A model generated the notes under the pieces. It made no database searches. It saw only the letters and a list, made by a program, of their open reading frames with translations, and was not told the origin of the DNA. Positions 887 through 38,975 of a stretch of 64,000 nucleotides of DNA are shown here, in pieces. This DNA comes from Acidobacteriota bacterium. Lineage in GTDB: Bacteria; Acidobacteriota; Terriglobia; Terriglobales; Acidobacteriaceae. Where the stretch lies: contig JAJXZL010000024.1 in NCBI GenBank assembly GCA_021780075.1, positions 3,975 to 67,974 on the forward strand, in the 5' to 3' direction. Both the position numbers and the translations under genes were made by a program. The first letter of the stretch is position 1. The number at the start of each line of letters is the position of its first letter.

Positions 887-977
887 ACAGTTGACAGCGA
901 ACAGCTTTCAGCTGTCAGTAAGACCGGGATGTGCATTGCACCAGATTGCAGGCTGACAGCTGAAAGCTGATCGCTGT
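887..977 (+). repeat. Heptad-periodic array forming a 25-bp inverted repeat (hairpin) followed by a T-tract, in the rpsC-rplP spacer
   Basis: ACAG/TCAG cores at 887, 894, 901, 908 and 915. The partner arm has CTG at 953, 960, 967 and 974. Positions 894-918 are complementary to 953-977 at 24 of 25 positions. TTTTTCGAGGTTTTTCG follows. Confidence 0.85.
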
Positions 978-996
978 TTTTTCGAGGTTTTTCGTT

Positions 997-1434
997 ATGT
1001 TGATGCCAAAGAAGGTGAAGTTCCGCAAGCAGCAGAAGGGCAAGCGCCGCGGTAAGGCGTGGCGGGGCTCTTCGCTCTCGTTCGGTGAGTACGGTTTGAA
1101 GGTCATGGAGTGCGGATATATCACCGACCGGCAGATCGAGGCCAGCCGTATCGCCATGACTCGCTTCATCAAGCGCGGCGGCAAGATCTGGCTGCGGCTG
1201 TTTCCGGACAAGCCGATCACCAAGAAGCCTGCCGAAGTCCGCATGGGCTCGGGCAAGGGCGCGTTGGACCACTGGGTAGCCGTCGTGCGGCCAGGCAAGA
1301 TCCTCTTTGAGATGGAGGGCGTGGCCCCGGAAGTGGCGCAGGAAGCCATGCGTCTGGCGTCGAACAAGCTGCCGCTGAGGACCAAGTTTGTGCAGCGGCC
1401 CGGCGCGGAAAAAATTGAGGCTGCGGCCAAGTAG
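997..1434 (+). CDS. rplP: 50S ribosomal protein L16
   Basis: [22 protein letters not shown]...; L16 signature and operon position. The true start may be the second ATG at 1003. Confidence 0.96.
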
Positions 1435-1511
1435 CCGGGCTCGTTGAGCCAGATGAGAAGGACGCGCCGCCCGCCCGGCAAGGGGCAGGCTGAGCGCCGG
1501 AGAGAGAAGCA

Positions 1512-1754
1512 ATGGAACTCAATAAAATGCGCAATTTGAGCGACGCCGAACTGCTGCACCAGGAGAAGACAGCCTCCGAGCAGCTTTTCCGGCTTCGCTT
1601 CCAGGTCTCGCTTGGGCAGAACGACGGAGTCAAGAGGCTTCGTCAGCTGCGCAAGGAGATCGCACAGATCAAGACCGTGGCCCGCGAACGCGAGCTGGGC
1701 ATCCGCGGCGCGGCAAAAGAAGCCGCGGCAGATGCCGGAAAGGGAGCCCGCTAA
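1512..1754 (+). CDS. rpmC: 50S ribosomal protein L29
   Basis: 80-aa ORF with LSDAELLHQEKTASEQLFRLRFQVSLGQ, the L29 pattern. Its stop abuts the rpsQ ATG. Confidence 0.93.
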   Translation: MELNKMRNLSDAELLHQEKTASEQLFRLRFQVSLGQNDGVKRLRQLRKEIAQIKTVARERELGIRGAAKEAAADAGKGAR

Positions 1755-2078
1755 ATGACGGCGACGACAGAAGCAGTGCAGGCAGCGCCGGCAACCTCGC
1801 GACGCAACGAGAAGGTTGGCCAGGTGGTTTCGACCAAGATGCAGAAGACCATCGTGGTCGAGGTCGAGATGCGCAAGGCGCATCCCAAATACAAGCGGAT
1901 CGTGCGCAGCTCGAAGAAGTTCTACGCACACGACGAGCAGAACTCGGCGCGGGTTGGCGACGTGGTGCGCATCCGCGAGACGCGTCCGCTGAGCAAGCTG
2001 AAGCGTTGGTCCCTTGAAGAGATTGTTCGGCGCTCGTCCCTGAATCAGATTGAGGACGCTGCGCCCATCGCGAAGTAG
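1755..2078 (+). CDS. rpsQ: 30S ribosomal protein S17
   Basis: [41 protein letters not shown]...[11 protein letters not shown], the S17 OB-fold signature. Confidence 0.95.
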
Positions 2079-36023: not shown

Positions 36024-36154
36024 GCGCGAAGTATTGAGGCAGTGATTCAGACAGTTCTCGTGCAAAAAGGGATAAGGTCGCATGTCATCGACCTTATCCC
36101 TCTTCTTTCACCTATCTTCAATTTACGAACTATTCTCTTCGACTTACTTTGCGC

Positions 36155-37645
36155 TCACTCCGCGTTGTCGATCTGCGCCCGCTGGAGCTTGTCGGAGTAA
36201 TCGACGTACACCGCCTTCCACGTCGTGAAGAAGTCGATGGCGCCCAGGCCCTCGCGGTGGCCGTTGCCGGTTTGCTTGACGCCGCCGAAGGGCAGATGCA
36301 CCTCTGCGCCAATTGTCGGCGCGTTGATGTAAGTAATGCCCGCCTCCAGGTCGCGAATGGCCGCAAAGGCGCGGTTCACGTCCTTGGTGTAGAGAGCAGT
36401 GGACAGGCCATAGTCGATCGAGTTGGCGATTTCGATGGCCTGCTCGAAGGTGTCAAACTCAATGAGGCTTACGACCGGCCCGAAGACTTCTTCGCGTGCG
36501 ATGCGCATATTGGGCGTGACTCCGCCGAAGACCGTTGGCTCAAAGAAAGTGCCCTTGCTGTAAGCTCCCTCAGTCAGTGGGTGGCCTCCGGCAAGTAACT
36601 TGGCGCCCTCTGCCAGAGCGATCTCAACATACTGCTTTGAGGTTTCAATCTGCCCCGCATTGACCTGCGGACCTACCTCGATGGACTCATCAAGGCCGTT
36701 GCCGACTTTGAGCGCCTTGGCGCGGGCAACAAAGCGGGAGGTGAACTCGGCAGCAATGCCCTTCTGCAGCAGGACGCGGCTGGTGGCAGTGCAGCGCTGG
36801 CCGGTGGTGCCGAAGGATCCCCAGAGCGCGCCGTCGAGGGCCAGCTCAAGATTGGCGTCGTTGAGCACGATCTGCGCGTTCTTGCCACCCATCTCCAGCG
36901 ATACGGGCTTGAAGGTGGCGGCGGCGCGCTGGCCGACAAAGGAGCCGACCTCGCTGGAGCCGGTGAAGCTGACGGCGCGCACGTCGGGGTGCTCGATGAG
37001 CGGCGTGCCGGTGGCCCCGCCGCTGCCGCTGACAATGTTGACCACTCCAGGCGGCACGCCGGCATCCACCAGCGCCTGCACCAGGTTATAGGTGGAAAGC
37101 GGGGTATCCGTGGCCGGCTTGATGACGCAGGTGTTGCCGGAGACGAGCGCCGGGAACAGCTTCCAGCTTGGAATGGCCATGGGGAAATTCCATGGCGTGA
37201 TGAGGCCAACGACGCCCACGGGCATGCGCACGCTCATGGCGAACTTGTTCTGGAGTTCGCTGGGCGTGGTCACGCCAAAGAGGCGCCGCCCTTCTCCGGC
37301 CACATAGAAGGCTTCGTCGATGGCCTCCTGCACGTCGCCACGGGTTTCCGCGATCACTTTGCCCATTTCGCGGGTCATATCGCGTGCGTATTGCTCCTTG
37401 CGCTGCTGGAGGATAAGGCCGGCGCGTGCCAGGATCTCTGCCCGCTTGGGCGCGGGAACAAGGCGCCACGTGGCGTATGCCTTTTTGGCGGCCGCAACGG
37501 CTAGGTTCACGTCTTCAGCATGAGAGGAGGGAAACGCCCCAACGATGTCGGAGTGGTCCGCCGGGTTAAGGTTCAGGATGGTCTTGCCGCTCCGGGCGGG
37601 CAGCCATTCGCCGCCAATCAGATTGTGGTATGTGGGATAAGTCAT
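36155..37645 (-). CDS. NAD(P)-dependent aldehyde dehydrogenase family protein
   Basis: 496 aa: [23 protein letters not shown], catalytic [16 protein letters not shown]. Confidence 0.94.
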
Positions 37646-37832
37646 AAGGTCCTCTGGATCAGTGCAAAGCCCGGCTGTTCAGTTGGATGTCAGGGCCAGT
37701 GCAACCCACTGAGTTTACCGCAACGGGCACAGGCCGCACAGTGCAGCGGAAGTTCGGGACTGAAGGGCAGGGTTTACGGCCACATGCGGCCCGCTGGCCG
37801 TACAATGTGAATGAGGTAGATTTAACTTTCCA

Positions 37833-38897
37833 ATGTCATCGAACGGTTATCCTTCGCGCTCCTCGCGGTCGCACGGCCTGCGCTCTCTCTTCAGCATGTT
37901 TTCCAGCGATCTGGCCATCGATCTCGGCACTGCCAACACTCTGGTCTTCGCGGCCGGCAAGGGCATTGTTGTCAACGAGCCCTCCATTGTCGCGATCAAC
38001 AAGAACACCGGCGAAGTGGAAGCCGTAGGCAAGGAGGCCAAGGAGATGCTGGGGCGCACGCCCGGCAACATCGTGGCCATCAAGCCGATGAAGGATGGCG
38101 TGATCGCCGACTTCAAAGTCACAGAAAAGATGCTGAACTATTTCATCCAGAAGGCGCACAACCGCAAGATGCTGGTGCATCCGCGTATTGTCATCGGCGT
38201 GCCCTCTGAGATCACGCAGGTGGAGAAGCGCGCCGTGGAGGACTCCGCGTATCGCGCCAAAGCCAGCGAAGTGTACCTGGTGGAGCAGGCCATGGTGGCG
38301 GCCATCGGCGCGGGGCTGCCTATTCAAGAGCCGGGCGGCAACATGGTGGTGGACATTGGCGGCGGAACGACGGACATCGCGGTGATTTCGCTATCGGGCA
38401 TTGTCTACTCGCGTTCGGTGCGCATGGCCGGAAACCAGATGGATGAGGCCATCACCAACTACCTCAAGCGCAAGTACAACCTGCTGATTGGCGAGCGCAC
38501 AGCCGAGCAAATCAAGATCGAAATCGGGTCAGCCTATCCGCTGGACAAGCCCCTGACCATGGAAATCAAGGGGCGCAACCTGATTGAAGGCGTGCCCAAG
38601 ACCATCAGCATTGACGACAGCGAGATTCGCGAGGCGCTGGGCGAGTGCATTGCCGTGATCATGAATGCGATTCGCGTGGCGCTGGAGCGCACGCCGCCGG
38701 AGTTGTCAGCCGACATCAGCGACCGCGGCATTGTGTTGACCGGAGGCGGTGCGCTCATCAAGAACCTGGACAAGCGCATCCGCGAGGAGACCGGCCTGCC
38801 CGTATCCGTGGCCGACGACCCGCTGGCCAGCGTGGTACTGGGCACGGGCAAAATGCTCTCCGACTTCCGGCTGCTGCGCAAGATCAAGATCGACTAA
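37833..38897 (+). CDS. mreB: Rod shape-determining protein MreB
   Basis: ...[24 protein letters not shown]..., [26 protein letters not shown]. The N-terminal amphipathic leader before MFS resembles the E. coli LKKFRGMFSNDL, so I keep the upstream ATG at 37833. The alternative is 37896. Confidence 0.95.
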
Positions 38898-38975
38898 CAG
38901 GGGTCAGGGCTCAGAGATCAGGGATCAGAGGTTGAGGGTCCGTGTCTGCTGATTTCTGCACCCTGAGCCCTAACC
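38897..38975 (+). repeat. Heptad-periodic TCAGRGN array and long imperfect hairpin in the mreB-mreC spacer
   Basis: ACAG/TCAG/TCAG/TCAG/TCAG/TTGA at 38897, 38904, 38911, 38918, 38925 and 38932, beginning in the mreB stop codon. 38902-38914 pairs with 38963-38975 at 12 of 13 positions. The 3' arm ends 4 nt before the mreC ATG. Confidence 0.8.

Follow-up and report, generated by a model that had tools for sequence, protein, structure and literature searches.

Heptamer foldback repeats occupy spacers within essential operons of Acidobacteriota

Introduction

Tandem heptamer repeats between the genes of cyanobacteria were reportedly described in 1990, and to our knowledge they have never been explained since. 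Miniature inverted-repeat transposable elements (MITEs) and the foldback transposons of eukaryotes are characterized by inverted ends of fixed polarity, a non-coding interior and sites that are filled in some genomes and empty in others, and in eukaryotic foldback elements the inverted ends are themselves built of short tandem repeats. The present study concerns short heptamer arrays, mostly arranged as complementary facing pairs, that lie between essential genes in a 64-kb stretch of DNA from an Acidobacteriota bacterium (contig JAJXZL010000024.1; hereafter, the window) and in the corresponding loci of its relatives.

Several systems with the same unit length have been described. The tandem intergenic heptamers of cyanobacteria, the short tandemly repeated repetitive (STRR) sequences, have counterparts in the GGGGAYT repeats of Nostoc and the GGGAATC repeats of Xanthomonas; some form inverted pairs, and their length varies at conserved positions (PMC4692102, through which the original Calothrix STRR report is known here). 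Arrays of TAACTGA lie within ribosomal-protein operons of Beggiatoaceae, just before start codons (MacGregor 2015, PMC4679880), and the same heptamer is found in some cyanobacteria and Bacteroidetes (PMC4679880). Geobacter metallireducens carries facing arrays of five MTYCTGA heptamers, for example between proB and proA, as well as sites with four copies of GGGACCG (PMC2700814). No function has been established for the STRR, Xanthomonas, Beggiatoaceae or Geobacter heptamers (PMC4692102, PMC4679880, PMC2700814), and heptamers are the commonest unit of long simple sequence repeats in bacteria according to Mrazek (2007), as cited in PMC4679880 and PMC4692102. A first-pass annotation of the window knew of no described element class with such a heptad architecture anchored to stop codons; these reports of intergenic heptamers provide precedents for the architecture (PMC4692102, PMC4679880, PMC2700814).

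Results

Period-7 foldback elements in the window

Period 7 is the dominant non-coding periodicity of the window. A self-match of at least 20/28 is reached at 13 positions with this period, compared with 0 to 7 for any other period from 3 to 15, and the top-scoring period-7 regions are all spacers that carry heptad elements. The same spacers contain all five regions with at least four invariant columns over four heptads and are called by Tandem Repeats Finder with a period of 7 or 14, while the longest three inverted repeats no more than 200 nt apart in the whole 64 kb are the elements between rpsC and rplP, rplE and rpsN, and mreB and mreC. Relatives were examined in a comparison set of 160 Acidobacteriota loci (2.2 Mb in total, identified by L numbers), comprising 80 loci around rplE from species-representative genomes (1.34 Mb) and 80 loci around mreB taken from metagenomes (0.9 Mb). 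The ribosomal-protein loci contain 612 period-7 arrays and the mre loci 103, versus 2 in the block shuffles of each set; periods 4, 5, 8, 10, 11, and 13 gave 0 to 58 and 0 to 12 arrays, respectively. The heptad signal is well above chance.

The flanking genes, identified by NCBIfam, encode uS3, uL16, uL5, type-Z uS14, uS8, uS11, uS4, MreB, and MreC. All coordinates originally proposed for the five heptad arrays and their stop codons agree with the sequence, and the arms of the five elements are as follows.

887..921, + strand: rpsC-rplP 5′ arm, ACAGTTG ACAGCGA ACAGCTT TCAGCTG TCAGTAA (cores ACAG/TCAG at 887, 894, 901, 908, 915); starts 1 nt past the uS3 stop TAA (883-885)
950..978, + strand: rpsC-rplP 3′ arm, GCTGACA GCTGAAA GCTGATC GCTGT; inverted repeat of 25 nt, 96% complementary
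3532..3567, + strand: rplE-rpsN 5′ arm, CAGCTAT TAGCTTT TAGCTAC TAGCTTT AAGCTT (AGCT at 3533, 3540, 3547, 3554, 3561); starts 3 nt past the uL5 stop TAG (3526-3528)
3641..3676, + strand: rplE-rpsN 3′ arm, AAGCTAA CGGCTAA AAGCTGA TGGCTGA TAGCTG (facing RGCT array at 3642-3670); inverted repeat of 27 nt, 81% complementary
3878..3900, + strand: rpsN-rpsH 5′ arm, degenerate, GACAGCG ACCAGCT CCTAGCC, three units only (CAGC/TAGC at 3880, 3887, 3894); starts 1 nt past the uS14 stop TAA (3874-3876)
3949..3983, + strand: rpsN-rpsH 3′ arm, AGCTAGA AGCCGGA AGCTAAA AGCGAGA AGCTGTT (AGCN at 3949-3977); the conserved rpsH leader comes next (about 3990-4059)
11337..11362, + strand: rpsK-rpsD 5′ arm, ACAGGGA ACCGGGG TCAGGGA TCAGT (ACAG/ACCG/TCAG/TCAG at 11337-11358); starts 2 nt past the uS11 stop TAA (11332-11334)
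11389..11405, + strand: rpsK-rpsD 3′ arm, short, ACTGATCCCGGACCTC; the conserved rpsD leader comes next (about 11411-11481)
38897..38935, + strand: mreB-mreC 5′ arm, ACAGGGG TCAGGGC TCAGAGA TCAGGGA TCAGAGG TTGA; begins at the last A of the mreB stop TAA (38895-38897)
38949..38975, + strand: mreB-mreC 3′ arm, CTGATTT CTGCACC CTGAGCC CTAACC; inverted repeat of 27 nt, 78% complementary

These arrays constitute one element class and pair into hairpins, as had been proposed, and RNA folding gave z-scores relative to dinucleotide shuffles of -6.6, -6.3, -2.9, -3.3, and -3.6 for the five elements in the above order. Inverted-repeat searches and RNA folding indicate stems of 25 to 33 pairs. The rpsC-rplP stem, with about 33 pairs, spans 893-978 around a loop of about 30 nt (-50.2 kcal/mol), and its base lies 7 nt from the stop codon and 18 nt from the start codon; on its 3′ side come T6, a GAGG ribosome-binding site and the rplP ATG at 997. 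The rplE-rpsN stem spans 3532-3674 with a structured interior of about 75 nt (-67 kcal/mol), and the rpsK-rpsD stem spans 11347-11405 (-33.3 kcal/mol). The mreB-mreC stem spans 38899-38971 (-39 kcal/mol), with its base 1 nt from the stop codon and its end 7 nt upstream of the mreC ATG (38979). The rpsN-rpsH arms pair mainly at AGC/GCT cores, and this element and that between rpsK and rpsD are the weakest of the five. The heptamers fall into an AGCT/CAGC type and a CAGGGAT type, and the 11-mer TCAGGGATCAG, correctly reported before as common to the rpsK-rpsD and mreB-mreC elements, occurs at 11351 and 38918. As a sample of the element population, the window is moderately rich in copies and partly decayed. 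The best relatives of its uL5 protein, at no more than 95% identity, come from Acidobacteriaceae and Terracidiphilus genomes, and near-identical DNA was found in mine-drainage metagenomes only, which places the window in an uncultured member of the Terriglobia.

Anatomy, polarity, and distribution

Among relatives the elements follow a single plan: a 5′ arm of 3 to 6 tandem YAG-type heptamers, a non-conserved loop and a complementary CTR-type 3′ arm. A strong inverted repeat is present in 197 of 269 heptad-positive spacers, compared with 84 of 656 other spacers. The stem has a median of 26 pairs and begins a median of 5 nt after the stop codon, the loop has a median of 31 nt (10th to 90th percentile, 11 to 72), and the stem ends a median of 22 nt before the start codon. 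Where stem end and start codon are far apart, a conserved leader lies between them (rpsD, rpsH, rplF, rpsM, rplR), so that the element fills the slot up to the translation signals of the next gene; at mreB-mreC, 3′ arms end 3 to 8 nt upstream of the mreC ATG. The element thus extends over all the free space that separates a stop codon from the next ribosome-binding region or leader. The initial description of the arrays as anchored to stop codons holds for the 5′ arms, which begin there; it does not cover the 3′ arms, which reach the next ribosome-binding site or leader, or arrays that lie before start codons with no stop upstream. The latter occur in divergent spacers, where arrays abut the start codon with no stop nearby, including before minus-strand genes.

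Read inward from either end, the YAG-type units include CAGGGAT, CAGTGAA, CAGCTNT, YAGTTCN, TAGGGAM, and others, and element ends read RR-CAG...CTG-(T/A)n. The heptamer cores are conserved, while two or three variable positions and the loops drift, and in the AGTTC family pairing is confined to the 5-nt cores. Polarity is strict: arms run 5′ YAG/3′ CTR in 112 elements and the reverse in 2, and counted by array, stop-proximal copies are 110 YAG versus 36 CTR and start-proximal copies 9 YAG versus 113 CTR (Fisher p = 6e-32). Such polarity has the look of the terminal inverted repeats of a mobile element, and also that of an array oriented to the adjacent gene end. Since it is invariant under reverse complementation, it is silent on which strand matters.

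The elements are one class, strongly concentrated in spacers within essential operons. In the mre loci, 75 of 79 lie outside called open reading frames (ORFs), and heptad arrays of many families occupy the mreB-mreC spacer in 48 of 73 relatives. The rpsC-rplP, rpsH-rplF, and rplF-rplR spacers are each occupied in 26 of 71 to 75 relatives, with at least five different heptamer families at rpsC-rplP. Individual genomes have one to a few families. The richest (L002, L003, L005, L009) reach up to 30 arrays per 20 kb, and others (L019, L061, L067, L074, L078) have no arrays and ordinary spacers of a few bases. Arrays also occur outside Terriglobia, in Blastocatellia/Pyrinomonadaceae and some Bryobacteraceae, with quite different units.

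Two further kinds of conserved or structured sequence lie in spacers of the ribosomal-protein operons. Directly 5′ of five ribosomal-protein genes stand blocks that are conserved in sequence and structure across many Acidobacteriaceae; they look like ribosomal-protein autoregulatory leaders, and none matches an Rfam family. That of rpsD, for example, reads gggccggga...gtaaaccggccgtcatccgaagtcaggagaagaa. Their positions in the window are as follows.

11411-11481: rpsD leader block
3990-4059: rpsH leader block
about 4530-4611: rplF leader block
about 10420-10524: rpsM leader block
about 5180-5221: rplR leader block

Other long ribosomal-operon spacers (115 to 156 nt; window 12119-12144, 4456-4611, 2856-2979) hold GC-rich hairpins with no heptad periodicity, such as GGGCAGCCTGGCAACGGGCTGCCC on the 3′ side of rpsD, and these could be decayed elements or separate structures.

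Turnover at orthologous sites

Elements are gained, lost, and replaced at individual sites faster than synonymous positions diverge; this is the behavior of repetitive DNA and not that of a conserved RNA gene. One such site is the rplE-rpsN spacer, which shows the presence/absence polymorphism that the first-pass annotation had put forward as a sign of mobility. The empty site reads TAA|gaggattt|ATG in L004 and L013, and in the window and nine relatives the filled site consists of TAA, an insert of 81 to 155 nt and the same gaggattt. The insert is of the AGCT type in the window, L003, L005, L008, and L010 and of the AGTTC type in L001, L002, L007, L009, and L038; L010 and L038, which carry different types, are the closest genome pair (82% third-position identity). 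In co-occurring mine-drainage populations (at least four relatives), the rplE-rpsN spacer measures 14 to 30 nt and has no element (joints at window 3524-3690).

Arms also grow and shrink by whole units, which indicates slippage. Closely similar spacers of L126 and L127 have 6 and 4 units, respectively, and one-sided arrays have expanded to about 10 units in L099 and L081; contigs of the window's own population showed no unit-number variants, although contigs drop rare variants. Loops are unrelated between copies except in L005, where several spacers have the same unit order and the same loop sequence, always in one orientation.

Some mreB-mreC spacers have taken up genes; the slot after mreB is clearly permissive for insertions and appears to be a general insertion hot spot. 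In L096 (5538-6094), heptad arms enclose a gene for a 118-aa four-helix-bundle protein (5576-5932, minus strand) that matches TIGR02436 (E = 2e-35), a family known from 23S rRNA intervening sequences. The 2033-nt spacer of L090 contains, by eye, ParD/CopG- and BrnA-type antitoxin-like ORFs, and the 983-nt spacer of L089, also by eye, a 281-aa membrane protein on the opposite strand.

Transcripts and RNA structure

The elements are transcribed, at least in part, in a relative: one metatranscriptome contig covers rpsC coding sequence and continues into the 5′ arm. Fragmentary RNA unitigs assigned to L006 reach both arms and not the loop, for which hypervariable loops or assembly breaks may account. 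When words from a stretch of the window were looked up in transcriptomes, no RNA run contained more than 15% of those sampled, the runs presumably deriving from relatives.

Mismatches within the stems comprise 193 G:T, 172 A:C, and 337 others, and the transcribed strand shows no excess of G:U. Transversion-type mismatches are numerous, a pattern better explained by the shuffling of units than by the gradual point decay of a helix under selection. Given this lack of G:U bias, roles in RNA stabilization or RNase III processing are possible consequences and not demonstrated functions, although the median stem exceeds the duplex of at least about 20 bp expected of an intercistronic RNase III site. 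No Rfam 15 family matched the window or five heptad-rich loci at the gathering threshold, nothing relevant appeared in window positions 1-14000 at E below 5, and neither tRNA nor tmRNA was found.

Intrinsic termination was considered and rejected. A terminator scan flags none of the elements, TTTT follows the stem in only 27 of 197 cases, and the median loop is 31 nt, against the 3 to 8 nt of an intrinsic terminator with a compact GC-rich stem; the same scan finds the true alpha-operon terminator 3′ of rplQ (13954-13988), whose 15-bp GC-rich stem, 5-nt loop and T-rich tail provide a model of real terminators in this genome. As a separate observation, mreC has no recognizable Shine-Dalgarno sequence, and the bases just 5′ of its ATG are U-rich (window 38972-38981; orthologous spacers in L081-L160), suggesting coupled or S1-dependent initiation.

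Search for a mobilizing agent

Candidate transposases were sought with a RayT-like consensus query, a valid member of the family that is 59% identical to a Legionella transposase and whose matches carry PF01797. Acidobacteria encode a distinct group of RAYT-like (repetitive extragenic palindrome [REP]-associated tyrosine transposase-like) Y1 proteins, termed 'TIRYT', whose genes lie between inverted repeats that carry a GGGGWSAS motif (PMC3733652). On cyanobacterial plasmids, none of three RayT-like genes has heptad arrays beside it, and a search for ORFs between distant complementary arrays was dominated by neighboring elements. Among four RayT genes from unrelated metagenomes (L164-L167), none is flanked by tandem heptads; three are flanked by repeats containing GGGGTCA, and L167 has none.

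L164, 3700-4000: GGGGTCA repeats beside a RayT (PF01797) gene
L165, 4532-4830: GGGGTCA repeats beside a RayT (PF01797) gene
L166, 2500-2607: GGGGTCA repeats beside a RayT (PF01797) gene

The sequence GGGGTCAAG occurs in full beside the RayT genes of L164 and L165. GGGGTCA is also the unit of the acidobacterial CAGGGGT arrays, and this apparent likeness between RayT flanks and heptad units is a lead only, not a test. The next gene after RayT in both L165 and L166 encodes a DnaA C-terminal domain (PF08299).

Discussion

The best-supported interpretation, given an even chance here, is that the elements are fast-turnover foldback repeat DNA, similar to REPs or MITEs, that resides at cistron boundaries and has secondary effects on operon mRNA. 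It draws on the abundance and specificity of period-7 arrays, the filled and empty sites, the turnover of families, the L005 copies with common loops, the slippage, the polarity, the absence of signs of a selected RNA, the geometry of the slot, the gene enclosed in L096, and the existence of acidobacterial Y1 transposases (PMC3733652). Among the roles suggested by the first-pass annotation, a mobile palindrome or REP-like element is favored by the data, while nothing was found to indicate that selection acts on the RNA stem (G:T and A:C mismatches being of similar number). Under this interpretation, the window would carry copies of a widespread acidobacterial population of small non-coding foldback elements, either tolerated at cistron boundaries or targeted to them. 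They may be selfish or semi-domesticated DNA that persists where a self-pairing insert does least harm, and the slot from a stop codon to the next ribosome-binding site or leader could be the sole part of a compact operon able to take up about 100 additional bases without harm. Once transcribed, such an insert would fold into a 20-30 bp hairpin and loop itself out, keeping the stop codon and next start close together and leaving no single-stranded landing pad. As side effects, the hairpin would probably impede 3′ exonucleases, be cleaved by RNase III, or enforce translational coupling. As a guess, the elements might be spread by a tyrosine transposase (Y1/HUH, of the RAYT-like 'TIRYT' kind) or by some other protein recognizing the repeated core. 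The mechanism is inferred because neither a transposase, nor a binding protein, nor a transcript end was found.

A number of observations weigh against this interpretation. The window and 2.3 Mb of related loci yielded no Y1/RayT-like transposase by motif scan and tblastn, and the filled and empty rplE-rpsN sites reveal no target-site duplication. Copies outside L005 have arms in common and not loops, unlike ordinary MITEs. At rplE-rpsN, the arms of the window and L008 are about 96% identical with completely different loops, despite a synonymous (third-position) identity of only 66%, so that the arm sequence must be constrained by something. The spacers of L133 and L160 hold arrays of two unrelated families that are unable to pair, and in L122, L123, and L129 a lone array (CTGAGAA/CTGACAA) stands directly upstream of the mreC ATG; neither arrangement is predicted by a purely hairpin-based mobile element. 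Occupancy is also uneven: the mreB-mreC slot makes up 2.3% of mre-locus sequence and holds 42 of the 79 elements, and array density is about 4 times higher in ribosomal-protein loci than in mre loci, which fits selection for the elements equally well as tolerance or targeting.

Selection for an intercistronic RNA hairpin is a serious rival, though on balance unlikely. The 20-30 bp stem would then have a job in the polycistronic mRNA, such as blocking 3′-to-5′ exonucleases, being cleaved by RNase III, or placing the stop beside the next start for coupling. Precedents exist in the REP element between malE and malF and in RNase III processing of phage T7 early mRNA and of rRNA intervening sequences. 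Such selection would account for the repeated occupation of the same spacers by unrelated families, notably at mreB-mreC and the three ribosomal-protein spacers named above, for a median stem long enough for RNase III, for stem bases that lie 1 to 7 nt from the stop and 7 to 18 nt from the start codon, and for 3′ arms that end close before an mreC without a Shine-Dalgarno sequence. MreB is, moreover, expected to be needed in more copies than MreC, the metatranscriptome contig enters a 5′ arm from rpsC, and the four-helix-bundle gene enclosed in the L096 loop belongs to an rRNA intervening-sequence family. However, a selected helix is difficult to reconcile with the lack of a G:U excess, the restriction of AGTTC-family pairing to 5-nt cores, the existence of non-complementary arm pairs, and the many close relatives that manage with empty spacers of 8 to 18 nt; no transcript ends were observed, the RNA data being fragmentary unitigs. 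The unpairable, lone, and divergent-spacer arrays show that the repeated core is more than a by-product of the hairpin, and they keep alive a second serious alternative, itself quite improbable, in which the core and not the hairpin is functional. A protein would read the 7-nt register to mark cistron boundaries or starts; candidates are S1, a cold-shock or CsrA-like RNA-binding protein or, on DNA, a nucleoid-associated protein or regulator, and binding-site functions have been proposed for the Beggiatoaceae (PMC4679880) and Geobacter (PMC2700814) heptamers. Cores that stay conserved while variable positions and loops drift, strict polarity relative to the neighboring gene end, partnerless arrays directly before starts, and families common to genomes with near-saturated synonymous sites are all consistent with binding sites, as is the resemblance of AACTGAN to the Beggiatoa TAACTGA and of the GCTGANN units at window 950-978 to the Geobacter MTYCTGA (PMC4679880, PMC2700814). 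Yet unrelated cores coexist within a genome and replace each other at one site, so that no single regulator could recognize every one of them; the complementary arms seen in most heptad spacers are more than a simple array of sites would need, and no candidate protein was identified.

Least credence is given to microsatellites arising in place, which are very improbable as a full account. A chance heptamer would expand by slippage and acquire its inverted arm by template switching, with neither movement nor selection, in line with the differing unit numbers of the near-identical L126 and L127 spacers, the one-sided expansions in L099 and L081, and the prevalence of heptamers among long bacterial repeat units (Mrazek 2007, as cited in PMC4679880 and PMC4692102). 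Slippage alone, however, cannot take an 8-nt spacer to 100-160 nt with a unique loop, nor does it explain why the same families recur at many sites in many genomes or why the L005 copies have loops in common, and a polarity of 112 to 2 would not be expected from random seeding.

A bolder proposal, regarded as a long shot, is that a trans-acting system reads the 7-nt register and that the arrays are its visible half, with one protein per family writing, maintaining, or binding the arrays at cistron boundaries. Such a protein might be a Y1/HUH 'TIRYT' transposase that has been domesticated, or one that binds RNA or DNA. If so, interchangeable repeat modules would set mRNA processing, stability, or coupling in the most highly expressed operons, and the STRR, TAACTGA, and Geobacter heptamers would be explained in the same way.

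Whichever account holds, the acidobacterial case is unusually informative, with dense arrays of several families and strict polarity whose positions between essential genes are exactly defined. Among related genomes, one and the same site can be found naturally filled, empty, or swapped, and together with array density and polarity these states make several questions testable by comparative genomics and simple reporters: whether the elements are selfish DNA, mRNA-processing signals, or protein-binding arrays; what mobilizes them; and how operons tolerate 100-nt inserts between translationally linked genes. In practical terms, the arrays cause short-read assemblies to break where cistrons meet, look like terminators or small RNAs to annotators, and inflate intergenic length in Acidobacteriota genomes.

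Comparison with known systems

Like the STRR, Nostoc, and Xanthomonas repeats, the acidobacterial arrays are tandem intergenic heptamers, often between co-transcribed genes (as at Nostoc pecE-pecF); in both, length and sequence vary among close relatives at conserved positions and some arrays form inverted stem-loop pairs. Head-to-tail 7-nt units, at least three and non-coding, and a unit number that varies among relatives were found here as in STRR and long simple sequence repeats generally. In contrast, the STRR, Nostoc, and Xanthomonas arrays are often long (to tens of units) and usually single, whereas the acidobacterial arrays are short (3-6 units), mostly in complementary pairs, flush with stop and start codons, of several families per genome and from another phylum, and G-quadruplex formation is no general option for their cores.

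The TAACTGA repeats of Beggiatoaceae are similar in forming sets of 2 to 6 heptamers in ribosomal-protein operons, a few nucleotides 5′ of starts, in one orientation and with stop triplets in the unit; the acidobacterial start-proximal units (G/C)AACTGA and GCTGANN are almost the TAACTGA unit. Forward arrays just 5′ of starts are the rule here as well (113 CTR versus 9; in the window, 950-978 and 38949-38975). The Beggiatoaceae repeats, however, consist of a single heptamer, inverted in 1 of 170 sets (PMC4679880), with related heptamers unrepeated, whereas the acidobacterial arrays use many units in many families and are mostly paired with a stop-proximal array. The class 3 repeats of Geobacter, comparable here by description only, likewise consist of five tandem heptamers whose core is CTGA and which face each other in pairs; one such pair separates the co-transcribed genes proB and proA. 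They are multi-copy in one genome and absent from the sister species, number only 8 pairs and have been read as sites for an IHF/HU-type regulator (PMC2700814).

REPs and REPINs (REP doublets forming hairpins) are likewise short extragenic palindromes, mostly downstream of genes, with genome-specific families, inverted pairs, and hairpins in mRNA; the same intergenic sites are re-occupied in related species, and the elements are thought to be non-autonomous and mobilized in trans (PMC3116915, PMC3733652). The acidobacterial elements share the short, imperfect, multi-copy extragenic palindrome (197 of 269 spacers). They differ in being built of tandem heptamers, whereas a REP is one palindrome of 20-40 bp that carries a GTAG or CGTC tag; no such terminal tag is present, GTAG occurring only inside some AGTTC-family units. 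Within the window and the related loci searched, no RAYT/TIRYT gene has been linked to the heptad arrays, although GGGGTCA resembles the GGGGWSAS and GGGGTCAAG motifs near Y1 genes. With MITEs and foldback transposons the elements share terminal inverted repeats of fixed polarity (112 to 2). They differ in that, outside L005, the interiors of copies are unrelated, no target-site duplication is seen, and no parent insertion sequence is known.

No description was found in the literature on Acidobacteria and heptamer or heptanucleotide repeats, and heptad foldback elements appear to be undescribed in Acidobacteriota. The acidobacterial heptads match the known heptamers in unit length, location, and variability, and they are set apart by systematic foldback pairing, several families per genome, strict polarity, and extreme density in essential operons.

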